Assembly (NCBI GenBank): GCA_037139695.1
Contig: JBAXFX010000001.1
Span: forward strand, 1 to 54,449
DNA: 54,449 bases
Origin: Candidatus Moraniibacteriota bacterium
GTDB lineage: Bacteria > Patescibacteriota > Minisyncoccia > Moranbacterales > UBA1568
Direction of reading: 5' to 3'
Below the pieces are notes generated by a model, which made no database searches, was not told where the DNA came from, and saw nothing but the letters and a program-made list of their open reading frames with translations. Shown one piece after another: positions 6,887-24,047 of this stretch (position 1 is its first letter; every line of letters starts with the position of its first letter). A program made the translations under genes and the position numbers.

Positions 6887-7495
6887 TTATCGCGTCAGGG
6901 CGGGAATCACCCTGTACCGATCCAATAATCTTTCGAATTCCGGCTTGATATTCTTGATCCGAAGCTTATCATAATCAGGCCCGCCATAAACCTCATGTCT
7001 CAACAAAAGATCAAGGAAATCGAACCGCTCCGACGGGTCACATTCTCGGATCCGATCAAGGCTCTGCGATTGGATTCTCGTGACATGCATCTTGGAATCG
7101 TATGCGACGGACCCGGTATTGATCGCGGCTGAACGGATCGACACCGATAGGAATATGGAACATTCCTTGCCCGAGACTTTTTTCAGAAAAGCGATCGCTT
7201 CCTCGGCGATTCCCTTCAACCGGGCATACACCGTCCCTTCGCAGAGTACGACCACTCCGGATCCCAAAAACACGTTTGACCAGGCCATGTTTCCATGCCG
7301 ATTACCAAGCCCTAAGACAGCCTCGGCGGATATCTTCTCCGCCAGGCCCCGACAGAACGATTCATCGTACGGCTCATTCAGGAACGGGCCGTGAACGGTT
7401 TCGAACCCGTCTTCGATATACCCTTTCAGGCCGAGGACGCGGTCGAGCAGTTCCGGAAGTTCCGTCGTGATGACTCCACGTTTTTCATGTATCAT
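6887..7495 (-). CDS. Hypothetical protein (202 aa), no recognised domain
   Basis: Long ORF with a purine-rich 'agagagggg' upstream of the ATG and its own terminator. No motif recognised. Confidence 0.6.
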   Translation of the reverse strand: MIHEKRGVITTELPELLDRVLGLKGYIEDGFETVHGPFLNEPYDESFCRGLAEKISAEAVLGLGNRHGNMAWSNVFLGSGVVVLCEGTVYARLKGIAEEAIAFLKKVSGKECSIFLSVSIRSAAINTGSVAYDSKMHVTRIQSQSLDRIRECDPSERFDFLDLLLRHEVYGGPDYDKLRIKNIKPEFERLLDRYRVIPALTR

Positions 7496-7654
7496 GTTCC
7501 CCTCTCTTTTTTCATTGTTGAAATATTGTTAACAAACACAAAGACGACCCATCATACTTCGCCAATACGGTCCTGTCAATAAAACGCGAGGGAATATCAA
7601 CGGAGGGAGGATAAAAACAATGACCTTCCCTAAAAAATCAGCTATCAGAAAATA

Positions 7655-8749
7655 CTACTTTTCCGCTTCGCCGCGCAGTTCCTCGATAAGTTTCTTTTCT
7701 TTTCCTGAAAGCTTCTTCGGTATGTCTATCGTGACGGTCACGAGGTGATCGCCTTGGCCGTATCCCCGGACATTTTTCAGCCCCTTTCCCTTTATACGGA
7801 ATATTTCCCCAGGCTGGGTACCGGCAGGAATCTTCATATTCACAAAACCGTAGGCCGTTTCGACCTTCACGGTATCTCCGAGAACCGCCTGCGGGAAAGA
7901 AATGGCGAGCTTGGACAGGATGTTCTCCCCACGACGCGCAAACGACGGATGCGATTTCACATGGACATTGACATAGAGGTCTCCAGACTGTCCTCCCGGC
8001 TCACCGGCGGCACCCTTGCCGGAAACCGATATCACCTGCCCGTCGTCGATACCGGCGGGTATCCGAACGGTCACGTCCTCGTCTCCGGTCACACGACCCG
8101 CGCCATGGCACTTCGGGCAGTCCTCCGCGAAACGCTTTCCCTTGCCATGGCACTTCGGGCACGGTACGACCGTCGCGAACGTACCAAGCATGCTCCGAAC
8201 CGTCTGTCGGACCTGCCCGGCCCCGCCACATTCCGAACAGGTAGTTTCCTTCGACCCTCTCTTCCCTCCGGTGCCGTCGCAATCCGAACATACGATCGTC
8301 TTGCGCAACCGCATCGAGCGTTCCGTCCCGTTCACCATGTCCATGAAGGAAATCTCCACATCAACCTGAATATCGGATCCGGCCCGTGGCCCGCGTTGCC
8401 GACCACCCGAGAACCCTCCGCCGAACAGATCCGAAAAGACGTCCTCGAAACCACCGGCGCCACCGCCAAACTGAAAATCATTAAAATCAAAACCGCCGGC
8501 GCCGTTCCCACCGGAAAATCCACCAAAACCGGCCGGACCCTCGGCACTCCCATACTGGTCATATCGTTTCCGCTTTTCCGGATCGGACAGTGTGCCGTAT
8601 GCCTCGTTCGCTTCCTTGAACTTCGCCTCGTTGCCACCCTGCTTGTCCGGATGATGCTTGTGCGCGAGCTTTCGGAATGCCTTCTTGATATCGTCTTGGG
8701 ACGCGTCCTTGGATACGCCGAGTATCGCATAATAGTCCTTGTTTGCCAT
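7655..8749 (-). CDS. dnaJ: Molecular chaperone DnaJ (type I Hsp40)
   Basis: J domain '[32 protein letters not shown]', a G/F-rich linker and four CxxCxGxG zinc-finger repeats ([32 protein letters not shown]). Confidence 0.95.
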
Positions 8750-8805
8750 AGGTCATCGAATGTTTTGGAATCTGATCCCTCCCACTGTACCGCAAAACGA
8801 AAAGA

Positions 8806-8832
8806 TTAGCAATCCAATAAAGAGAGTGCTAA
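8806..8832 (-). promoter_or_regulatory. CIRCE operator (HrcA binding site) upstream of dnaJ
   Basis: TTAGCAATC-N9-GAGTGCTAA versus consensus TTAGCACTC-N9-GAGTGCTAA (1 mismatch). It lies 57-83 nt upstream of the dnaJ ATG. Confidence 0.8.
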
Positions 8833-8847
8833 TACTTCCATTTTTGT

Positions 8848-9153
8848 CACTGGTACCCGATTAGGTTGGTGAAAGTGCTTCTTTTAGGCTAGGATAAAGT
8901 CAGAATCGACGTTTTATATTTTATAAAGTAAAAATGCTTAATTCGCAGTCACAAATCCCCCTCGCTCCCCCTTCCCGAAAGGGGGAGACATATCTTTTTT
9001 CGCTTGTACTGTAATCGATATCTCCCTTTTGCAAAGGGAGTACCGAGTCTTCGAGGGGAGGGATTTGTGCTTGATCGGTCGAAGTCGGCATATCATTTTT
9101 TAGAATACGTCGAGTAAAATATCTTTAAGAAACTACCTAATCGGGAACTAGTG
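8848..9153. repeat. Nested palindromic element, about 306 nt (repeat family 1 arms enclosing a family-3-like module)
   Basis: Terminal arms 8848..8870 'cactggtacccgattaggttggt' and 9131..9153 (reverse complement 'cactagttcccgattaggtagtt') match at 19/23. An inner inverted repeat spans 8950..9069 ('cacaaatcccc...gggagggatttgtg') and encloses two CTCCC/GGGAG hairpins. The right arm recurs at 54398..54449. Confidence 0.8.
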
Positions 9154-12038: not shown

Positions 12039-13991
<1,953 letters not shown>

Positions 13992-14103
13992 GTCAGAAGA
14001 ATCAAAAAATGAAGAACCTTTAGAATAGAGAAAAAAGCAAAAAGAGGCAAACTCACACCAGACCCAATCTTCTCATATGGTCGAGCCCTCGATACCACGT
14101 CAA

Positions 14104-15267
14104 TTATCTATTTCCCTTCGCGCGATTGTGCGTCTTACAAAGCATCTGACAATTCTTTTCCGAAGTCGCGCCGCCCTTGCTCCACGCCGCCACATGATCA
14201 GCATCCATTTCATCCGCCTTCCACATTTTTTCCTTGTTCGCATCATGTCCCATCGCGCACAGCGGACAGTTCGAAACCCCTTTCTTTTCCGCAACGGCGG
14301 TCTGTTTCGCATAGACGGACTTCTTGGTCGCTTCGTCGAAAATCCTGACCTCAAGCAATTTCGTGTCAGTGGAACCACCGAGTACATATTCGAAGACTCC
14401 CTTGCGATTCTTGATATACGGGTCACCGTAGAGCGCGCGCACCTCGTCCGACACTTTCGCGGGGTCGTAGGCATCCTTGTGATACGTCTCGTACAGCCGC
14501 CCCCATTGCAGTCCGCGCATCTCGCTCTCCACATCCGTAAACACGCCCGACACCCAGTCGATCACGGTATTGAAATACGTCTTTACCTCTGCGATGGTCG
14601 TGTCGAATCGATGTCTGCTCATATACTCACCGATTTCTCCGCGGCTCACCCACTCGAGCGCCCGTTCCCAGAAGTCCTGACGATTGGCACTCCCTGATAC
14701 ATATGCGCTCCATTTCTGGATATTGGCGTTTCCGCTATTACTGAATTCTTCCTTGCCGAGCGTGATAAAAGGACCGGAATAAACGGCGTTCAACAATTCC
14801 TGCGTGTTCAGAGGCACGCCCGCAATATTGATCGTCTTGAACCATTCCTTGATTTCGCTCTCTTCCCCTTCACACTCATAGATGAGCAGCTTCGTTTCCA
14901 TAATCAAAGCCCTCTTATCAGCAGCCATACCGGTAAAGTTCTGCGGCAACCCGTTTTCGTCTTTGAAGGCGAATTTATCGTTAACGAATCGTCCGACACT
15001 GGTGATGCGCTGCTGTCCGTCCAATACCTCGTATATCCCTTCACTCACGGTATTGAAATAGATGAGTCCGAGCGGATACCCCTTCAAAATCGACTCGATA
15101 ACCGCGACATCCCGCTTGCCGTCGGCATAGATATAATTTCGCTGATACTCCGGCTGAATAGTAAGCTTGCCGGCCAAACCGAACAGTCCCTTACCCTCAA
15201 GCTCGTTATACACGAACCCGTCGCAGATATCTTTCACGGTGATGTCGGTCCTCAGTGTCGTTTTCAT
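14104..15267 (-). CDS. DUF262 (ParB-like NTPase/nuclease) domain protein with C-terminal HNH nuclease; GmrSD-like type IV restriction candidate
   Basis: 387 aa. DUF262 hallmarks '[11 protein letters not shown]' and 'LDGQQRITS'. C-terminal HNH '[32 protein letters not shown]'. Confidence 0.85.
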
Positions 15268-15279
15268 ACGATATGATCA

Positions 15280-16329
15280 TCAATTATTCGTACCGCCCTT
15301 CCGTTCCTTTTTTACTTTTTTCTCCAACATCGTGATACGTTCCAGATATTCCTTCTCGACCGGAGAAAGGGTCTTGGCCTGATATTTCCGGTATTCCATT
15401 TCGGCTTTTTCCATCGCTTTTTCGTGTGTCACCGTTCCGGCACCGGAGAGGACGCCTTCTCCATACTCGGAAAGCAGTTTGTCCAGTGCCGCGATATGCT
15501 CCGTCATACGCATCGCTTGCCGATTCATGGCGCGCAATTCGGCCAATTCGAAATATGCCGAAACGAACCTGTTCAGTTTCTCCAATTCCTCGGCAGACAG
15601 ATAATTCTTGGCAATCCTGACTTCTTCCAATACGGGCAAATCCCCCGCGAAAGCCGTCAAACCCATGAATTCCTTGCCACTGTCGGCGCGATTGAAAATG
15701 ACTTCCGCCGCCGTCTGTTTATGCGCGCCATAATGCAGTTTGTTCTGTACGATTTTGAAAAACTCTATCGAGTGCAGGGATTTCGGATCATAATCGACGC
15801 TGGTGGCATACAGGTCCAGAACCTGCCGATACAGCATCTTTTCGCTGGACCGTATGTCTCGGATGCGGGACAGCAGCTTTTCCCAATACCGACCGCCACC
15901 GTTGTTTTTCAAGAATTCATCATTCATCGAGAACCCCTGAACGAGATATTCCTTCAATCGTTCGGTCGCCCACACGCGAAATTGCGTGCCTCGCAATGAA
16001 TTCACGCGATAGCCGACGGAAATGATGGCGTCGAGGTTATAGAGCTTCGTCGGTCGATTTATCTCTCTTTCACCCTCTTTTTGAACTACCGAGGATTTCT
16101 CGGATGTTCGATTCTCTTGTAATTCTCCCTCCGAATATATATTTTTCAAATGCAATCCGACATTATCCGCCGAGCAACCGAAAAGCTCCGCCATCTGCTT
16201 TTGCGAAAGCCACACGGTCTCGCCTTCGACACGCACCTCGATGCCAGGGGCACCGTCCGCACCCGTATAGATGATCACTTTGCCGTGATCATCCACGTCC
16301 GATGTTTTTTTCCTATTTTGCGTATTCAT
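15280..16329 (-). CDS. RhuM family virulence/defence-island protein
   Basis: 349 aa. 'VWLSQKQMAELF', 'YNLDAIISVGYRVNSLRGTQFRVWATERLKEYLVQGFSMNDEFLKN' and 'YRQVLDLYATSVDY' match my recollection of the RhuM (PF13310) family. Confidence 0.8.
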   Translation of the reverse strand: MNTQNRKKTSDVDDHGKVIIYTGADGAPGIEVRVEGETVWLSQKQMAELFGCSADNVGLHLKNIYSEGELQENRTSEKSSVVQKEGEREINRPTKLYNLDAIISVGYRVNSLRGTQFRVWATERLKEYLVQGFSMNDEFLKNNGGGRYWEKLLSRIRDIRSSEKMLYRQVLDLYATSVDYDPKSLHSIEFFKIVQNKLHYGAHKQTAAEVIFNRADSGKEFMGLTAFAGDLPVLEEVRIAKNYLSAEELEKLNRFVSAYFELAELRAMNRQAMRMTEHIAALDKLLSEYGEGVLSGAGTVTHEKAMEKAEMEYRKYQAKTLSPVEKEYLERITMLEKKVKKERKGGTNN

Positions 16330-16393
16330 AACCGTTCATCAAAATGACAACAAACCCAGCGCGTCTCGAAAATAGCGAGGGAAGCGTCGGGGT

Positions 16394-17245
16394 TCATGAT
16401 GCAATCAAATCAAAGTTCATATTTTTAAGTTTAGAATCAAAGAATAAAATCTCTTCGCCTTTTTTTGTTCGAAAAGCCGTGTGAGTCAAATTGAATTCAT
16501 AGCTATTTTTAACAAATGCGTAAATGTTTTTTATTTCTGCCGCGTTGTCATAAGAAACTATCCAATGAATTTTTTTTATTTTTTTAATTTCTTGGGACAC
16601 CTTTTTATGATCATCGTTGTTATAAGAATTTTTATAAAGCCGTGGACCTTTTAAGTAATAAGGAGGATCAAAATAGAAAATGGTATTTGCATTATTTGAT
16701 TCTTCTTTTATTTTCTTGATTAATTCCAAAGCGTCCTCATTGAACAGTCTTATATTTTTCCTATGTTTCGCGATGAGCCGTATTCTTTTAATAAGCTCTT
16801 CTTTATTGAAACGGCAATCCATTTTATAATTTCCGCTCTGCTCAAGTCCACCGATAACTCCAGCGTCCATGATGCCCGAACGGTTTGTCCTGTTCAGAAA
16901 TAAAGTCGAGAACCCCAGTTCCAAGATATCGGCGTCATTTTTCCTTTTCTGAATTTCCCTCATTTTCAACCAATTTTCGATATTTACATCCGTTTTTTCT
17001 ATCAAATCACATATTTTATTTGTTCGATTCAAAACAGAGTACCAAAAGGCATAAATGGAACGATCGTAATCATTTATCGTGATTCTATCTACTTTGTCTT
17101 CCAGCAATAAATACAAAGCCACTGAAGCCCCCCCGGCATACGGCTCTACATAATGCCCACGGATATTGTTATCAACGCAAATCTGGGCAATGAACTTTGC
17201 CAGTCTATTTTTTCCGCCAGGATATCTCAGTGGCGAGTAAAACAT
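16394..17245 (-). CDS. Dam-like (D12 class) N6-adenine DNA methyltransferase
   Basis: 283 aa. 'LRYPGGKNRLAKFI', SAM motif 'YVEPYAGGASVAL' and catalytic 'FYFDPPYY'. Strongly AT-rich coding sequence (about 32% GC in one hand-counted line from this patch). Confidence 0.85.
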   Translation of the reverse strand: MFYSPLRYPGGKNRLAKFIAQICVDNNIRGHYVEPYAGGASVALYLLLEDKVDRITINDYDRSIYAFWYSVLNRTNKICDLIEKTDVNIENWLKMREIQKRKNDADILELGFSTLFLNRTNRSGIMDAGVIGGLEQSGNYKMDCRFNKEELIKRIRLIAKHRKNIRLFNEDALELIKKIKEESNNANTIFYFDPPYYLKGPRLYKNSYNNDDHKKVSQEIKKIKKIHWIVSYDNAAEIKNIYAFVKNSYEFNLTHTAFRTKKGEEILFFDSKLKNMNFDLIAS

Positions 17246-17247
17246 AT

Positions 17248-18540
17248 TTATTTTTTCTGGGCTTTAAAATAAGTCTCAAGAATATCTCCTGTGACATATG
17301 ACATATTCATAACATCATTCTTAGAGACTATAACATTCCCATGTGCAAAATTTCCTAACAATGCGTCGAGGTTAAAATTTTTGTTTAAATAATCTGATGT
17401 TATACTTAAGTATCCATCAGTGTTTTTCTCAGCGTATTCTCGTTGGAACAACTTAATTAAATCTTTATATGGATTTTCTTGTTTGGCATTTGTAATATCC
17501 CCCTGCTTATTGTAATAGACCCTCGCCGCAACATCTAAAATTAGACGTAGAGACATCCCTACAATCAATAGAATCTTATCATCATCTCGTCCCTTTTTGT
17601 GGATTTTATCAATAGCAAGATACAAATCATTTACAGGACCCTTCTCAAGTTCAAGAATTCTCCCAAAAAGAATCTCGCTTCTTTTTGTTGCTGGTGTTTT
17701 TTGAAGTTTAATAAATTTATCCGTTCGCTCCTTACCGATCGAAATCTCTTCAAGATTTCCTTTTTTTGGATTTTTGAATATCTCACGAATTTGCTCGTCA
17801 TTATCAATTATTGATTTCAATTTTCCTCGGTTCTTTCGAGTAGATATTTCCTTCTTTTTTAAAGCATTCTGTGTTGCTTCAAAAATTTTCACAAGTTGTT
17901 CAGCGGAGTATTTGCTATACAGTTTACCTGATTTAAAATCAATTCCTATATCTTTGAGGTTTTTTTCATTCAAAACCTCGTCCTTTACAAATCTTTTATT
18001 TAAGATTTTATTTCCTTTTATAAATCCTGTCTGTTCATTAATCGCCACAAAAATAGATTTCGCTTCTTTTTTGAAATTCAACAAAAAATAATCTCTCTCA
18101 AGTTCTCCCCACGACCCATTATCGACATGTTTTCTTTCAATACTGGTAATAGCAGTATTTTCATCGCAAACATTACATGGAAGAGTGGTTTGATTCCTTA
18201 AAAATTCTGGTTCATATTCCCGAAACAACTTTCCGACGTACTTAGAATACTTGTCATCGTTCTGTATAACTTTCAGTAAAGCAACCCTCCTGTTGCCATC
18301 ATAAACCACGTACTTTCCATCCTTTTTAACAACTATTGGCAACTCTGAATAATCATAATACTCGCCCATTTTTTTCACCAGCCTTTGTATATTCCATTTG
18401 TTATCTGTATCTTGTATAATGCGATCGATTATCTCTTCATCCGTTTTTTCGGCGTCAATAGGATCTCTCGGATTCTCTGTCCAGAGATATAAATCTTTTA
18501 TAGGAATGCGTAAAATCTTTTGCATCATAACTCTAAGCAT
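17248..18540 (-). CDS. ParB/Srx-fold N-terminal domain protein with an uncharacterised C-terminal region of about 330 aa
   Basis: 430 aa. 'LRIPIKDLYLWTENPRDP' followed about 58 aa later by 'VVYDGNRRVALLKV', the ParB-type NPR...G-x-R-R arrangement. The start overlaps the stop of the upstream MTase by 1 nt (TAATG), and its stop is 2 nt from the Dam-like ATG. AT-rich. Confidence 0.6.
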   Translation of the reverse strand: MLRVMMQKILRIPIKDLYLWTENPRDPIDAEKTDEEIIDRIIQDTDNKWNIQRLVKKMGEYYDYSELPIVVKKDGKYVVYDGNRRVALLKVIQNDDKYSKYVGKLFREYEPEFLRNQTTLPCNVCDENTAITSIERKHVDNGSWGELERDYFLLNFKKEAKSIFVAINEQTGFIKGNKILNKRFVKDEVLNEKNLKDIGIDFKSGKLYSKYSAEQLVKIFEATQNALKKKEISTRKNRGKLKSIIDNDEQIREIFKNPKKGNLEEISIGKERTDKFIKLQKTPATKRSEILFGRILELEKGPVNDLYLAIDKIHKKGRDDDKILLIVGMSLRLILDVAARVYYNKQGDITNAKQENPYKDLIKLFQREYAEKNTDGYLSITSDYLNKNFNLDALLGNFAHGNVIVSKNDVMNMSYVTGDILETYFKAQKK

Positions 18541-19682
18541 TATCTCTTATGCCGAATAAAGATCCGCTTGAACGTCTCACTTCCATTTAGATAAGAGCCA
18601 CGCCCATAAACACCTTTTTGATCCTGATCAACACCTCGATTCGAGCCGATAATCTCGAACTGTTCTGGAGAATACTTATCAAGGAAGCTGATCGGGACTC
18701 CCATGACACCAGGGTAGTCACTTGGGATGGAGTCCGTAAACGAAACTTCAATGGCATCATAATTATCGTATGTGTCATATGTTGCTTTTCCCTTGATTTC
18801 TTTGTGCCTGCTATATTTCAAATTCTCTTCCATGGTCATGAGTGGCAACGGCTGATGGCGCCTTCCGTGGTCGAGTCGAGTGAACCAGCATGAGTTTCCG
18901 AGTCTCGTGTAGTCACCAACATACCCCAATCGGGCCGCTTTCTGCCTATCGCTCTCCGCGATTTCTGCACCATTCGGCACGGCGAAAACCATATCACTCC
19001 CATTCCCCGTCGCACCAAGCCACAGCTTGTTTTCCTTGATTTTTGGAAACACTTCCTTGTAGGTGATCGCGTTCATGTTGCCGATAATCACGAACTTCTT
19101 ATCGTACTCAAACAATTGCTTCACGTATTCACGGAAGAGCGAAAATGGCGGGTTCGTCACCACGATATCGGCTTGTTTCAATAATTCCACGCACTCCGGG
19201 CTCCTGAAATCGCCGTCTTCCTCGAGCGGTGCCCATTCATTATGCTTGTTCGCCTTCAACTGTTCGGCAATGTCTTTCAAATTATATTCACCATCGCCGT
19301 CGAAATCGCGCGCTTCGTTGATGATAAATCTGTTGGCGGTTATTTTCGGTCTCCCTTTTGGTTCTGCTGGTTTACTCAAAACTTTCTCTTCATACCCTTG
19401 GAAAAGGGACGCCTGTAATGCCAGTTCCGTACCGGCAATCGGCGACGGCTTAAAACTCGTCGTAATGAGCCGCTTCAATCCAAGCTTGTTGAAATTGATC
19501 ACGAAAAAACGGAAGAAATTGCTTTCGTAGGGATCGTCACAGTTGGAATACACCGTCTTGCCCCGAAACGCGTCGGGGTCGAAATCCAAATACGCCCCGA
19601 TTTCCTTTTGGATATCGTTGAATTGCGTATAAAACTCATCGTTTTTCGCCCGTTTCGCATTCGTGAGATTGCTGTTCGCCAT
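18540..19682 (-). CDS. EcoRI-family N6-adenine DNA methyltransferase
   Basis: 380 aa. The N-terminus 'NAKRAKNDEFYTQFNDIQKEI...KTVYSNCDDPYESNFFRFFVINFNKLGLKRL' closely resembles M.EcoRI as I recall it. Catalytic 'IVVTNPPFSLFREY'. Confidence 0.85.
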   Translation of the reverse strand: MANSNLTNAKRAKNDEFYTQFNDIQKEIGAYLDFDPDAFRGKTVYSNCDDPYESNFFRFFVINFNKLGLKRLITTSFKPSPIAGTELALQASLFQGYEEKVLSKPAEPKGRPKITANRFIINEARDFDGDGEYNLKDIAEQLKANKHNEWAPLEEDGDFRSPECVELLKQADIVVTNPPFSLFREYVKQLFEYDKKFVIIGNMNAITYKEVFPKIKENKLWLGATGNGSDMVFAVPNGAEIAESDRQKAARLGYVGDYTRLGNSCWFTRLDHGRRHQPLPLMTMEENLKYSRHKEIKGKATYDTYDNYDAIEVSFTDSIPSDYPGVMGVPISFLDKYSPEQFEIIGSNRGVDQDQKGVYGRGSYLNGSETFKRIFIRHKR

Positions 19683-19861
19683 AGCCGCCTTCAGGGTACC
19701 GGATCAGAATATATACGACAAACGTTTTTCCGCCTCGTCTCCATATTCAAACAATATCCTGTTTAAGCCAAAAAGACAAGAACCCTCCCAAAAATAAAAT
19801 GACTCTTTGTTGTATTTTGACCCCATAAAATTTCGAGTACGAAATCACGAGGCATGCTTTT

Positions 19862-19900
19862 AATTGTTCACTTCTCCGCTCCCTGACTTTCGACTTCCGA
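19862..19900. repeat. Short degenerate heptamer-periodic tract immediately 3' of murJ
   Basis: 'ttcactt|ctccgct|ccctgac|tttcgac|ttccgat' has 7-nt periodicity, in the same style as the tracts at 36451, 38793 and 39793. Confidence 0.35.
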
Positions 19901-21568
19901 TCACCACTCCCCTTTCTCCGGATGACCCTCGACCGACGGGACGACTTCCGGATTGCGGCGGACCTTGGACAGGATGAACTTCCAGAGCGAGCGTAGTTCG
20001 CTTATCTTAAACCAGTTGCCGAGGAGCAGGAAAGTCCCGAGACCGAGAAGGGTTCCGAAACTGAGCTGGAGGAACACTTTGAGGAACGTGTCGAGTGGCG
20101 ACATCGTAAAAAACGAGAACAGCGTTTTCGAAAGCTGGGCAACGATGCCGGCCAGAATCGCCGACAGAAAGATGAGCGCATTCTCGCGGAAGAACTGCGC
20201 GTCGTCCCATCCTTCGATCCGCTTCCGAAGCGCGAGCAGGAGAAAGAGAAAATTTGCCGCGCTCCCAAGCGAGAACGCCATAGCAAGCGCATCGGTGCCG
20301 TATCGCGGGAGGAGAAATATCGCCGACCCGACATAGATAGCCTCGCCGAGGATCGCGTAGAGAAAGGGCGTCTTCGAATCCTGTATCGCGTAGAACGCCC
20401 GAGCGAAGAGCGGTATAAGCGCCTGAGCGAAGAGACTGACGGAAAGCCATCCGAGTACACCGAACGTTGCCCTCGTATCGTCCCAGTCGAACCGGCCGCT
20501 CCCAAGGACGACCCGGACAACCTGTGCCCGGAAGACGACGAACAGCATGGCGACCGGAACGACGAAAAAGAGGATGCGCCTCGTCGTACGGGAGAGCGTT
20601 TCGAAAAACTCCCCGTTACGCTTCTCGGTCGCGGAGAACGAAAGTGTCGGGAAGGCGGCAAGCGAGAACGAGACCGCAAAGAGTCCGATCGGAATCGCCT
20701 CGATGTTCGAGGCAAGCGAAAAGATCGCGAGGCTCCCGGACGCGAGCATGGAGGCGAAGACCGTCGTTAAAAAAAGACTCAACTGGTTCGCCGCGATGCC
20801 AAGAGTGCGCGGGATCATAAGCATCACGACGCGCCGGACCGGCCCATCGAACCGAAGCGGGTGACGGAAAAGCGCAGGGAAAAACTTCCGGCTCCGCACC
20901 GATGGGATCTGCACCGACATGTGCAACAACGCGCCAAGCGCGACTCCCCACGCGAGCCCGGAAATACCGAATATCGGCACGAAAACAGTGATGCCGAGAA
21001 TGATACCGGCATTATAGATGATCGGTGCGAGCGAATAGGCCGTGAAACAACGGAAGGTGAGCAGCATCCCACCGAAGACCGCGCTTGCCCCGAGAAACAA
21101 CGGGGAAAGCAGCATGATCCGGGTCAGTTCGACGGTCATCGCGCGTTTCTCGTCGGAAAAACCGGGCGCGAGTACCGTCACGATGGCCGGTGCCGCGATA
21201 ATCGCGATGATCGAGACCGCGCCGAGCACGAGCAGTATCCACTCCAGGACGCCGGCCGCCAGATCAAGCGCCTCTTTCTTCTTCTCTTTCGAGATGAATT
21301 CCGTGAAGACCGGAACGAACGCCGCCGACAGCGCACCCATCACGAGCAGATTATAGAGGGTATCCGGGATGCGAAACGCGGCATAGTACGCGTCGAGCGT
21401 GTCGCCGGCACCGAAATGGCCGGCAAGGAGCCGGTCGCGGACAAACCCGAGCAGCCGACTCGCGATGCCGGCGGCCGCGATGACGAATGCCGCACCACCG
21501 ACCGTTTCCGACTGTGCATTTGCCAGGTTCCGCAGGAAGGCGAATTTCTTCTTCAGGAAAGACATCAT
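19901..21568 (-). CDS. murJ: Lipid II flippase MurJ
   Basis: Polytopic membrane protein. 'ASRLLGFVRDRLLAGHFGAGDTLDAYYAAFRIPDTLYNLL' is the MurJ/MviN N-terminal signature. The start is placed at MMSFLKK (21568) to avoid overlapping the upstream stop; the ORF extends to 21631. Confidence 0.9.
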   Translation of the reverse strand: MMSFLKKKFAFLRNLANAQSETVGGAAFVIAAAGIASRLLGFVRDRLLAGHFGAGDTLDAYYAAFRIPDTLYNLLVMGALSAAFVPVFTEFISKEKKKEALDLAAGVLEWILLVLGAVSIIAIIAAPAIVTVLAPGFSDEKRAMTVELTRIMLLSPLFLGASAVFGGMLLTFRCFTAYSLAPIIYNAGIILGITVFVPIFGISGLAWGVALGALLHMSVQIPSVRSRKFFPALFRHPLRFDGPVRRVVMLMIPRTLGIAANQLSLFLTTVFASMLASGSLAIFSLASNIEAIPIGLFAVSFSLAAFPTLSFSATEKRNGEFFETLSRTTRRILFFVVPVAMLFVVFRAQVVRVVLGSGRFDWDDTRATFGVLGWLSVSLFAQALIPLFARAFYAIQDSKTPFLYAILGEAIYVGSAIFLLPRYGTDALAMAFSLGSAANFLFLLLALRKRIEGWDDAQFFRENALIFLSAILAGIVAQLSKTLFSFFTMSPLDTFLKVFLQLSFGTLLGLGTFLLLGNWFKISELRSLWKFILSKVRRNPEVVPSVEGHPEKGEW

Positions 21569-21575
21569 AGGTTCA

Positions 21576-24047
21576 TCATTTCGTGGAAAGCACCGCACCG
21601 TAATAGGCATCCGTCGACAAGGTCGCATCAAACGAAAATCCCTGCCGGTCCCGATTCACCCCGTCGGAATGCCAATCGGCATTAAACCGGTCCGGAAAAG
21701 AAAACCTGGAATGAAGCGTACTCCCGTCGGTTCCCGACTGTTTCTGAAAAAGAATCGAATACGACGACGGATCGGCAGGTTGTGGCGAGACCCTGAACGG
21801 GAGACGGTACGTATATTCGACCGTCACGCTCTCCCCCGGGCTCACATAGACCCAGTTCCCGAACACCGTCTTCCCGGTCTCTTCCGAGATGCGCGTACCG
21901 CCCGGATCGACCGTTGTCGTGGACTCTTCCTTCACCACGTCATCGTCACGCTTGAACCCGAGTGCGTCATAGTCGAGCGGAGCCTTCGGAAACTCGTACG
22001 TCTGTCCGGACGCCGAGACAAGCTCGGAACCCTTGGGAACGTATACACGCATATAGTCCGAATTCACCTTGTTGAACCAATCATATGGCATGCCTCCCCC
22101 GGTATGTTTCCTGGTTATCCGAACCGTGTCAAGGACGGAGCCGTCCGATTGTACGACAGCCTGATGCTCGATCGTCTCGCGTATCACGGCGTCGGTCTTG
22201 TATCCATTGAGGTTGGTATGGACCACGCTCAGGTAATCACGTGGCGTATCGAGCATCCTCCCCGACCAGCCGGCCTGATCGATCAGCTTTTCCACGTCCG
22301 CGTTCCGGGAATACAGCAAGATATCCTTCTCGTTGAGTGCCTGGGAAAACGTATTGGCAAGCGAAACCAACATGGACGCGCTCCGGAGCGAGAACAACCG
22401 CTCGAGCAGGACGGGCGCGAGGTCGGAAAGGATTCTCTTCGGTTGGTTGAGAGTATGGTCGTAGTTCTCTTCGACTTCCGCCTGAATCGCCTGTGAAAAA
22501 TTATCCGCGTCGATCGTCACGCCGTAATCCGGCATCTCGATAGGACCCGTTAACACAAGCAGGTCCCGAAGCACGTTCGGCGTAAGCGTGACGATACCGT
22601 CCACGGTCGGACCACCGGTCTTCTCATAGAAGAACATCGCTTTCTCCGCCGAGGTCGGAAAATCCGGCCACCAATTGCTGTCATGGAGGCTCCAGCCCGC
22701 ACTCACCTTCTGTATCGGCGCCGGCGGAACGATATTCTCCTTCAGCTGCCCGTCCGGATTGAAAATCCCATCAACAAAGAGCTTCCCGATGTGACCGTTA
22801 TCCACTTTCAAAAGGCCGTAGCTTCCGATGAACCCGCCGGTCGGTCGAAGTTCGGCGTTGTTCTGAAAGAGGAACAGATACACGCGCGGTCCGTTCGCGC
22901 CCAGGAGTTCCCGGACCAGATGGGAATTTCCGTTGAAACCCTCGAGCACTGTCGCGATCACAGGCAATTTCTCGCGAATGGAAAGGAAGGTCGCCCGCTT
23001 GTCTTCCGGCACATCCTCGGGGCGGACCCGGGCGAACGCCCCTTGTGCCGCCACGACTTCTTTTTCCGCCGTCGACGATCCCTGCTCCGCCTTGTCGATA
23101 AGATCAAGAAATGATACGTTGCCACTTTTGACGGCATCGGTCGGCGATGCAGGCAGAAGCTCGAGTATCCCGCTCATGGCGACCCCTGCCGCGGAAAGAT
23201 GCTTGGCGCCCTCGAGCAACCCCTGATCGGAAGCGACTGAAGAAAGTCCCGGGATAAATCGTGCCGCCTTCGCAAGTTCATTGCCTACAGCACCAAGCGA
23301 GTCCGATGCCGCAGAGAATGTCTTGTACGCCTCGGAAAAATTTTTCGACGAGCCGGAAAAGTTTGCGCTCGTCAGATCGTTCATCGCCTGGGACGCGAGC
23401 GACGCGCCCTCGATACTTTCCCCGAGCACCTCGCCCTTGATGACGGTCAGGCGATATGCCCCGAAGGCGCCGCCGCCAAGCACGAGTACGATCGCAAAGA
23501 CAATCGCCGTCCGACGGATAAGCGTATCGGAAACAGCTATCGGTATGGGTTGAAACCGAAAGAAAGTCGGCATCGAAAATTTCGCGTCCCGAAACGAGTC
23601 GTATGCGTCCGACAATCGTCGGAAGAACCCTCCCTTCGCCGACATCGTGGAGTTCGATTGTCTTTCCTGTTCCGGTTCCGGCTCGCATGTCTCGATAGCC
23701 GGTTCCTCATCCGTTACCGTATCCCACGGTTCTTCTTGGCCGTCCCGACTTTCTTCTTCTACGAAAACGGAAGGTCGCCCATCGAGCTCGGCATGAAACA
23801 GCGGTCGATAAATCCGCTCAGCGTTCGGGAGTCGTGTACTGAATTCCTGTTCGGCCGGCGTATCAAACCGCTCAATCACCTCTGATTTCTCGAACACGGG
23901 AGTCTCATCCATGACAACCTCCCCATAGCCCTCTTTGCGAGGTGAGCCGACGGCATCGATCCGCTCCCAATCCAAAGCACCCGACCGGTTGGTCGGTCGG
24001 ACATCGAACATCTGCGGGATAATATGCTTTCTCGATTTCGATTCCAT
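21576..24047 (-). CDS. DUF4012 domain membrane protein with a long acidic, disordered N-terminal region
   Basis: 823 aa. A TM segment around residues 185-205. 'YLFLFQNNAELRPTGGFIGSYG' matches the DUF4012 hallmark as I recall it. Confidence 0.7.
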   Translation of the reverse strand: MESKSRKHIIPQMFDVRPTNRSGALDWERIDAVGSPRKEGYGEVVMDETPVFEKSEVIERFDTPAEQEFSTRLPNAERIYRPLFHAELDGRPSVFVEEESRDGQEEPWDTVTDEEPAIETCEPEPEQERQSNSTMSAKGGFFRRLSDAYDSFRDAKFSMPTFFRFQPIPIAVSDTLIRRTAIVFAIVLVLGGGAFGAYRLTVIKGEVLGESIEGASLASQAMNDLTSANFSGSSKNFSEAYKTFSAASDSLGAVGNELAKAARFIPGLSSVASDQGLLEGAKHLSAAGVAMSGILELLPASPTDAVKSGNVSFLDLIDKAEQGSSTAEKEVVAAQGAFARVRPEDVPEDKRATFLSIREKLPVIATVLEGFNGNSHLVRELLGANGPRVYLFLFQNNAELRPTGGFIGSYGLLKVDNGHIGKLFVDGIFNPDGQLKENIVPPAPIQKVSAGWSLHDSNWWPDFPTSAEKAMFFYEKTGGPTVDGIVTLTPNVLRDLLVLTGPIEMPDYGVTIDADNFSQAIQAEVEENYDHTLNQPKRILSDLAPVLLERLFSLRSASMLVSLANTFSQALNEKDILLYSRNADVEKLIDQAGWSGRMLDTPRDYLSVVHTNLNGYKTDAVIRETIEHQAVVQSDGSVLDTVRITRKHTGGGMPYDWFNKVNSDYMRVYVPKGSELVSASGQTYEFPKAPLDYDALGFKRDDDVVKEESTTTVDPGGTRISEETGKTVFGNWVYVSPGESVTVEYTYRLPFRVSPQPADPSSYSILFQKQSGTDGSTLHSRFSFPDRFNADWHSDGVNRDRQGFSFDATLSTDAYYGAVLSTK

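Follow-up and report, generated by a model that had tools for sequence, protein, structure and literature searches.

The window considered here is a stretch of 54,449 nucleotides, contig JBAXFX010000001.1 of assembly GCA_037139695.1, from Candidatus Moraniibacteriota bacterium (Patescibacteriota; Candidate Phyla Radiation, CPR). On its minus strand, between lepA (12039-13991) and murJ (19901-21631), lies an island whose genes read, in order, an EcoRI-family methylase, gene A, gene B, a RhuM-family gene and a protein with GmrSD_N and HNH domains. The subject of this analysis is the inner pair and its relationship to the anti-phage system PD-λ-5. Gene A (17248-18540, minus strand) encodes a PD-λ-5_A-type ParB-fold protein, an assignment drawing on its open reading frame (ORF) and translation, PADLOC, PHROG 9592, profile alignment by hhalign and 1,290 homologues. 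Gene B (16394-17245, minus strand) encodes its partner, a D12-class (Dam-like) N6-adenine DNA methyltransferase of 283 amino acids (aa; PF02086, E 5.2e-20).

Is gene A a genuine gene? Its reading frame runs for 430 codons from ATG to stop on the minus strand, and the plus strand over the same positions is rich in stop codons. The initial annotation of this DNA had listed a 430-aa ORF here together with two motifs, and both are indeed present, IPIKDLYLWTENPRDP at residues 12-27 and YDGNRRVALLK at residues 80-90, the coding strand being minus. The 1,290 homologues come from a first search (E<=1e-3); with few exceptions they are 410-450 aa long and align end to end. An exhaustive profile search gave 968 representatives at E<=1e-3 after clustering at 50% identity. 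Because a 1.3-kb ORF in DNA of 34% GC content is matched by so many mostly full-length homologues, gene A is a real gene and no chance product. Its homologues start with MKQEI, aligned with Met5/Met6, and the database copy of the protein has 426 aa, which makes Met5 or Met6, at 18528 or 18525, the probable true start, for a protein of 425-426 aa. The TAA stop of the upstream methylase occupies 18540-18542, the probable start of gene A lying at least 11 nt beyond it. At the other end, the junction sequence shows the stop of gene A followed by 2 nt and then by the ATG of gene B.

General family databases say little about this protein. Gene A has no meaningful match in Pfam at E<=10 (ASFV_P17 appears at 0.27) or in NCBIfam at E<=1, and tblastn against phage and plasmid collections gave no match. 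The initial annotation had considered only the first 90 or so residues interpretable, which holds as far as Pfam is concerned; for conservation it does not, as invariant residues span the whole length of the protein. A phmmer match of residues 54-85 (~18286-18381) to PucA-LH2-gamma (7zcu_S, E 2.8e-5) was set aside as spurious and probably compositional, the family profile failing to reproduce it.

The identity of the pair emerges from collections of defence systems and phage proteins. Gene A is matched by 23 PADLOC models, of which 22 are PD-Lambda-5_A (best E 2.2e-16) and none is a restriction endonuclease (REase) model, and PHROG 9592 is matched both by gene A (1.2e-17) and by PD-λ-5A of E. 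coli (2.4e-210). BLAST aligns these two proteins over residues 6-94 only, about 90 residues at 29% identity (E 6e-6); an hhalign comparison of a 49-sequence profile of the target clade with a 40-sequence profile of the E. coli clade covers residues 4-223 at 98% probability (E 3e-13). For gene B the correspondence is full length, both with the PADLOC model PD-Lambda-5_B (PDLC04018, 8.2e-117) and with E. coli PD-λ-5B (45% identity, E 1e-84); gene B also keeps its DPPY motif.

Vassallo et al. (2022) validated 21 systems, PD-λ-5 among them; it comes from E. coli ECOR7 and is labelled 'ParB/HEPN, methyltransferase' (PMC9519451). This prototype protects against 9 of the 10 phages tested, the broadest range in that screen, and needed a Δmrr host, from which its methylase is active in vivo; the authors term it a compact RM+Abi system, which combines restriction-modification (R-M) and abortive infection (Abi) (PMC9519451). 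We found the prototype locus in an E. coli genome, in a P2 prophage hotspot between a replication endonuclease and a portal gene, where a 501-aa hypothetical protein and a 294-aa DNA adenine methylase span 2,460 bp, in agreement with the coordinates implied by the Vassallo table.

Side by side, the two loci share their layout: each is a two-gene A+B operon on horizontally acquired DNA with a D12 adenine methylase as B, and each A protein joins a ParB/Srx N-terminal domain to a homologous middle domain and ends in a helical domain with an R-x3-[DE] helix and, about 70 residues later, a Y/A-x-H-(G)N motif. They differ in that the target A is some 70 aa shorter (430 vs 501), in the CPR host, in the location on a chromosomal island rather than in a P2 prophage hotspot, and in the nesting of the target cassette inside another methylase/nuclease pair. 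Judged by these comparisons, A-B can be taken as a divergent member of the known and validated PD-λ-5 system, and no new kind of system. The earlier proposal that gene A is the prime candidate for an unknown activity of the island thus keeps one half: a plausible defence-island effector it is, an orphan it is not, as it belongs to the PD-λ-5_A family with its validated prototype.

How closely do the two genes travel together? A pattern scan with one genome per species gave 80 gene A loci from at least 10 phyla, among them Patescibacteria, Bacteroidota, Alpha-, Beta- and Gammaproteobacteria, Actinobacteria, Spirochaetes and Fibrobacteres, with two in DPANN archaea. A B-type methylase adjoins A in 78 of them, and the other two are contigs that end right after A. 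At 57 loci B lies directly downstream on the same strand, mostly overlapping A or at most 6 nt away; 13 loci have B convergent to A, a layout typical of R-M pairs, and at seven a 1.5-kb gene stands between A and B. The identities of A and B to the window proteins also co-vary (Spearman 0.57, p 5e-8), and the linkage of the pair is, in essence, near-obligate.

The same sample holds variants of the pair. About 22 of the 80 loci carry an additional AAA_15/AAA_21 (ABC/OLD-like) ATPase gene of ~520-560 aa, which may separate A from B, precede A or follow a convergent B (L010 at 7314-8888; L008, L009, L014, L016-19, L032, L034, L038-41, L046, L049, L054, L056, L057, L060, L070, L071). We found no description of such a three-gene variant of PD-λ-5-like systems in the literature examined. 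The window itself holds the minimal two-gene form. In one Woesebacteria metagenome-assembled genome (MAG), B is split into two ORFs of 126 and 187 aa (L026, 7286-8151) beside an intact A of 436 aa. Either a frameshift in the assembly produced the split, or A has been retained there next to a broken methylase; the second case would bear on a possible toxicity of A without B.

The AlphaFold2 model of gene A (predicted local distance difference test, pLDDT, 83.7) resolves into four parts, namely a ParB/Srx domain, a middle domain, a linker and a helical C-terminal domain (C-domain). The first of these, residues 1-100 (18241-18540, minus strand), was delimited as a ParB/Srx or ParB-CTPase-fold domain from the model, Foldseek and BFVD comparisons and conservation. 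Against the Protein Data Bank (PDB), Foldseek places it with the ParB/Noc CTPases 6sdk, 7bnr, 7ol9 and 7nfu and with sulfiredoxin at probabilities of 0.97-1.0 (TMt 0.56, rmsd 4.6 for sulfiredoxin 6ky4), and the top viral-model matches in BFVD are all ParB/Srx or GmrSD_N proteins. The domain carries ENPR at residues 22-25, a conserved loop MGxYYDxSELP at 58-68 and the Box II GxxR motif at D81-G-N-R-R85. Conservation was read from a 49-sequence alignment of the target clade (A1) and, for all percentages given here, from a broad set of 210 full-length clade members: N23 and R25 are each kept in 97%, G82 in 98%, N83 in 100%, R84 in 95% and R85 in 100%. The GNRR arginine pair, which the initial annotation had picked out as worth checking, is therefore held at 95-100%. 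GxxR is the P motif of Box II; throughout the ParB-CTPase fold, NTP binding is lost when the Arg of this motif is changed to Ala, and proteins of this fold bind CTP, ATP or GTP with a specificity that is not predictable (PMC12704722). The model thus indicates that the N-terminal domain of gene A adopts a ParB/Srx fold with its phosphate-binding motif intact, as had been proposed from the motifs. A Pfam scan of 49 family members at E<=1 gave scattered noise and no ParBc (PF02195), DUF262/GmrSD_N or HEPN match; the prototype A reaches ParBc only by HHpred, at 96.4% (Vassallo et al.; PMC9519451).

Does the fold make gene A a partition or nucleoid protein of the ParABS, Noc or KorB type, acting in DNA segregation? 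Its best structural matches are the N-terminal domains of ParB, Noc and KorB, and with these proteins and the orphan NTP binders described in PNAS in 2025 (PMC12704722) it shares the fold of this domain, the invariant Box II GxxR, a conserved loop at the position of Box I (the C motif) and the sequence of N-terminal domain, central domain, linker and C-terminal domain. What sets it apart is the gene context and the rest of the protein. The window has no parA neighbour, the genes around A being methylases, RhuM and a nuclease in a chromosomal defence island; the 49 members have no ParBc or helix-turn-helix (HTH) match in Pfam, the alignment no ENxxR Box III; and a DNA methylase is the obligate partner. 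The C-domain, too, has catalytic-type invariants where the ParB-CTPase fold proteins have a simple dimerisation domain. A role in partition is hardly credible on this evidence. It was rejected, as was a GmrSD reading of A, on gene context and missing domains.

The middle domain, residues 101-278 (17707-18240, minus strand), is a conserved alpha/beta unit modelled with pLDDT mostly at 84-97. It keeps C122 (99%), C125 (90%), R136-K137-H138 (H138 95%), W144 (99%), T234-R235 (R235 96%) and R238, and according to hhalign it is homologous to its counterpart in E. coli PD-λ-5A up to about residue 223; Pfam and PDB sequence searches gave no match for it. Residues 279-289 (17674-17706, minus strand) form a Lys-rich linker of low confidence and variable length, with pLDDT below 50 at 279-287 and many indels in the alignment. 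The initial annotation had treated the ~330 residues behind the ParB-like domain as one unrecognisable, Lys/Glu/Asn-rich region. The composition is roughly as described (the middle region has 15% K, 10.6% E and 8.3% N), and the single region gives way to a conserved middle domain, a short disordered linker and a helical domain of ~140 aa. It matches no characterised family unrelated to DNA transactions.

This last part, residues 290-430 (17251-17673, minus strand), is a helical C-domain that we describe as HEPN-like but unproven; modelled alone, it reaches pLDDT 88.9 and a predicted TM-score (pTM) of 0.86. Its conserved positions are F292 (98%), N304 (95%), Y307 (97%), the helix motif R332-x3-[DE]336-x3-R340 (R332 and D/E336 each 99%), H400 (99%) and S414 (95%). 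R340 is invariant in the 49 sequences of A1, and in the broad set 70% of the members have R and 4% K. Such a set of invariant residues (R, D/E, R, H and S) would fit a catalytic role better than one in dimerisation alone.

The same pattern bears on whether A is an effector at all. It could instead be a ParB-fold regulator of the methylase, comparable to DndB or to C proteins, in which case the methylase would be the functional element, with an epigenetic or anti-restriction role. DndB and KorB are indeed ParB-fold regulators, A lies upstream of B and is translationally coupled to it, and a canonical nuclease motif was not found in A. However, R, D/E and H at 99% each make for an enzyme-type C-domain, one would expect a controller to be smaller than 430 aa and three domains, at some loci A and B are convergent with separate promoters, and a regulated orphan methylase leaves the broad anti-phage defence of the prototype pair unexplained. 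We consider a purely regulatory A quite unlikely.

With a probability of roughly 0.6, we read A-B as a divergent PD-λ-5-type two-gene anti-phage system, horizontally acquired by a CPR genome and working by an inferred restriction-like mechanism. In such a system, B would mark self by N6-adenine methylation of a short motif in the DNA of the host. A would be an NTP-gated DNA-binding protein of the ParB type, its N-terminal domain binding nucleotide, its middle domain binding DNA, and its C-domain dimerising, catalysing or both. DNA without the mark of B would be engaged by A as a restriction-like effector, with nuclease activity supplied either by the HEPN-like C-domain (R332/[DE]336/R340/H400) or by the ParB domain. 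An abortive-infection arm is possible as well, following the 'compact RM+Abi' idea put forward for the prototype.

A number of results weigh against this reading. Phage protection is demonstrated for the E. coli prototype only, and our literature search on PD-λ-5 returned surveys and no mechanistic paper. With the PADLOC A models, gene A reaches no more than 58 bits, most of the alignment falling in its N-terminal third, so automated callers with coverage cut-offs might miss it. A function needed at the ATPase-carrying loci may be missing from the two-gene form. Pfam, NCBIfam and PDB sequence searches found no nuclease domain of the PD-(D/E)xK, HNH, GIY-YIG or PLD kind in gene A. As to the C-domain, its HEPN fold matches are non-significant (E 0.8-3.6, probability <=0.28, TM 0.33-0.47), and the Arg of the HEPN motif Rx4-6H is absent, positions -4 to -6 of H400 being G/A, L and L. 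The HEPN label of the prototype is itself weak, since it goes back to HHpred values of 35.6% for DUF4145 and 8% for RiboL-PSP (Vassallo et al.; PMC9519451). Finally, hhalign of the target and E. coli C-domains alone stays non-significant at E 0.06, with MSLRL/VMLRV and KYAHGN/QYVHN in register.

What, then, speaks for a HEPN relationship? The full-length fold search diluted the signal of the C-domain; with the domain modelled alone, HEPN toxins come out on top in the PDB, the best matches being the HEPN-MNT toxins 8xeh, 6m6w, 7bxo and 5yep. The second HEPN motif, Ex3[KR], is matched by D/E336-x3-R340. HEPN families that keep the His without the Arg are documented, namely c2405 and Parep1/8 (PMC3710099), and because they exist, the missing Arg lowers the standing of the C-domain as a HEPN member but does not exclude it. 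ParB-HEPN fusions and operons of ParB, HEPN and DNA methylase genes were catalogued as conflict systems in 2013 (PMC3710099). With the HEPN superfamily and, by description only, with the Saro_3948 ParB-HEPN fusions and MAE_28990 operons (ParB, DNA methylase; Anantharaman et al. 2013), gene A has in common a ~140-aa all-helical C-terminal module, an invariant His, an acidic-x3-basic motif and the position of a ParB protein beside a DNA methylase; it departs from them in the lost Arg and in matches below significance. That the C-domain of gene A is HEPN-like is our working hypothesis, and the HEPN assignment of the E. coli prototype has the same standing.

A related question is whether the C-domains of the two clades are themselves homologous. 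Cross-clade searches with C-domain hidden Markov models gave 19 and 11 matches at E<=0.1 against none in reversed or shuffled controls; none is individually significant, and they fall in the right part of the proteins. Homology of the target and prototype C-domains is thus weakly supported. Beside this, one protein of 441 aa (P0172) is a mosaic: its N-terminal and middle domains belong to the target clade (profile E 1.3e-87) and its C-domain to the E. coli clade (E 7e-10), while its Box II reads GNCR. This mosaic suggests that the C-domains are equivalent modules exchanged between clades.

Two further readings build on the HEPN-like features. In the first, A would represent a novel type of restriction effector: a ParB clamp, gated by NTP, would load on DNA, scan for sites without the N6-methyladenine mark of B and license an Arg-less HEPN-like domain to cut nucleic acid; this we put forward tentatively, as a minority view. 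The second is modelled on PrrC. Here A would be a latent HEPN-type RNase toxin held by B or by the methylated chromosome, and a phage that blocks the methylase or titrates it away, or that fills the cell with unmethylated DNA, would set A free to kill the cell, leaving the phage DNA uncut. HEPN RNase toxins as the top matches of the C-domain, the conserved His with its Ex3[KR]-like motif, the RM+Abi wording for the prototype, the analogy to PrrC in the literature and the 2013 conflict operons of ParB, HEPN and methylase would all fit. Yet the C-domain is unproven as a HEPN member and has no catalytic Arg, the portion of the prototype text that was available makes no statement on an Abi action, and a simple toxin has no need of a clamp-like ParB module that binds NTP. 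A guard of this kind appears rather unlikely to us.

The preferred reading, a PD-λ-5-type pair with restriction-like action, also invites comparison with better-known systems. Like a Type II R-M system, A-B ties a methylase tightly to a putative effector and at some loci shows the convergent layout, and the methylase of its prototype is active in vivo; unlike one, it has in A no PD-(D/E)xK, HNH or other known restriction nuclease domain, and a ParB NTP-binding module instead. In the screen by Vassallo et al., clones that behaved like R-M systems were recognised by their escape plaques and excluded; for PD-λ-5 no such plaques are listed (PMC9519451). The DUF262 proteins of the GmrSD, BrxU, SspE and DndB type (Type IV, Dnd/Ssp) resemble A in using a ParB/Srx fold in defence and in being tied to the modification status of DNA. 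In contrast to them, A has no DUF262 match in Pfam, no DGQQR motif and no DUF1524/HNH domain, and it is encoded with its own methylase, whereas GmrSD-type enzymes target modified DNA.

The genes around the pair form a second unit. Upstream lies the EcoRI-family adenine methyltransferase (18540-19682, minus strand; PF13651, 8.9e-121), an outer modification gene that stands outside the A-B pair. On the other side of the pair are the RhuM-family gene (15280-16329, minus strand; PF13310, 1.2e-99; PADLOC candidate PDC-S05, 6.6e-140), a passenger of the island, and the outer putative nuclease with its GmrSD_N (DUF262) and HNH domains (14104-15267, minus strand; PF03235, 7.7e-22; PF01844, 7.7e-07; PADLOC REase_II, 1.5e-81). 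Homologues of the DUF262-HNH protein occur on 57 plasmids, with 61-72% identity for those beside an EcoRI-family methyltransferase. In plasmids of Moraxella and Enterococcus, an EcoRI-family methylase lies directly upstream of the DUF262-HNH gene with a gap of 9 nt, and the two are adjacent in Pseudarthrobacter too (outer-pair homologues at L082 2283-4676 and L083 2310-4664). Since they stand side by side on plasmids without A-B, the two outer genes make up a separate pair. A DUF262-HNH enzyme with its own methylase is unusual for the GmrSD-like (Type IV) architecture, and PADLOC scores it as a Type II REase.

Gene order and these comparisons therefore depict the A-B cassette, together with RhuM, as nested between the genes of the outer pair, one defence system inside another. 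The initial annotation had argued from the position of gene A between two methylases. The two flanking methylases are there, PF13651 and PF02086 where described above; only the downstream D12 enzyme, however, is the partner of A, as the 80 loci attest, and the upstream one pairs with DUF262-HNH. The nested block recurs in two Patescibacteria MAGs (L001 and L002) with unrelated flanks, and these are the only loci besides the window in which the EcoRI-family methylase accompanies A. RhuM is present in L001 (47% identity) and absent from L002, where the four other genes are contiguous, and is therefore an independently mobile passenger.

Might the M.EcoRI-like methylase, A, B and DUF262-HNH nevertheless work as a single system at the level of an operon, with A depending on the outer genes? 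Leaving RhuM aside, all four adjoin or overlap one another on a single strand, both in L002 and in the window, and the block, 64-80% identical in three genomes with unrelated flanks, moves as a unit. Against this, A and B occur without the outer genes in 77 of the 80 loci, the outer pair is found alone, 9 nt apart, on many plasmids, and GC content separates the inner pair (0.29-0.34) from the outer genes (0.38-0.50). Nor are the ParB-fold domains of A and DUF262-HNH detectably related beyond DGxR: hhalign of gene A with the DUF262-HNH protein of the island gives E 0.11 over 20 residues, with no significant similarity. An integrated four-gene system is very unlikely in our view, and we return to the two-gene PD-λ-5-type pair.

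When did this pair arrive? Host DNA has a GC content of ~0.57, the other island genes lie at 0.45-0.50 and the A-B cassette at 0.34. At 0.29-0.34, the cassette is well below its neighbours in the window and likewise at each of L001-L004, the four closest loci checked, even inside the shared five-gene block. This low GC content points to a distinct and probably recent origin of A-B. The host belongs to Candidatus Moranbacteria, its LepA being 89-92% identical to proteins of Moranbacteria MAGs. In close relatives the island is missing and the slot between murJ and lepA holds a gene of Lactamase_B fold, with a small unannotated ORF added in one of them. Because the island is absent from this slot, it is a strain-specific insertion. 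The Lactamase_B-fold gene of the equivalent slot (window ~13992-19900) lies at 6970-7593 in L084 and L085 and at 8312-8908 in L086, and one of these has a weak Pfam match to Anti-Pycsar_Apyc1; the murJ-lepA slot may thus be a variable locus for defence and counter-defence genes. Around the island we found no flanking direct repeats or tRNA as signatures of integration, and a scan of the island for promoters and terminators did no better than shuffled sequences.

The results add new details to the picture of PD-λ-5, among them the nested arrangement and the ATPase-containing variants, and nothing in them contradicts current understanding. For annotation they hold a lesson, as nested defence systems mean that inference from neighbours can pair the wrong genes. 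They show the 'HEPN' label to be weak for the target and E. coli clades alike, and they name R85, C122/C125, H138, R332, D/E336 and H400 as targets for mutation. The PD-λ-5 family itself spreads well beyond enterobacterial prophages, to Patescibacteria, Bacteroidota, Actinobacteria, Spirochaetes and DPANN archaea. Should the ParB domain act as an NTP switch that senses methylation status, the diversity of the ParB-CTPase fold would be linked to the discrimination of self and non-self. If, beyond that, A is the new type of effector considered above, the logic of restriction-modification would here be built from a ParB switch and a HEPN-like nuclease, with a modular three-gene version that includes an ATPase and with C-domains swapped between clades; and its spread through CPR bacteria and DPANN archaea would place it among the few compact innate systems in ultra-small cells.

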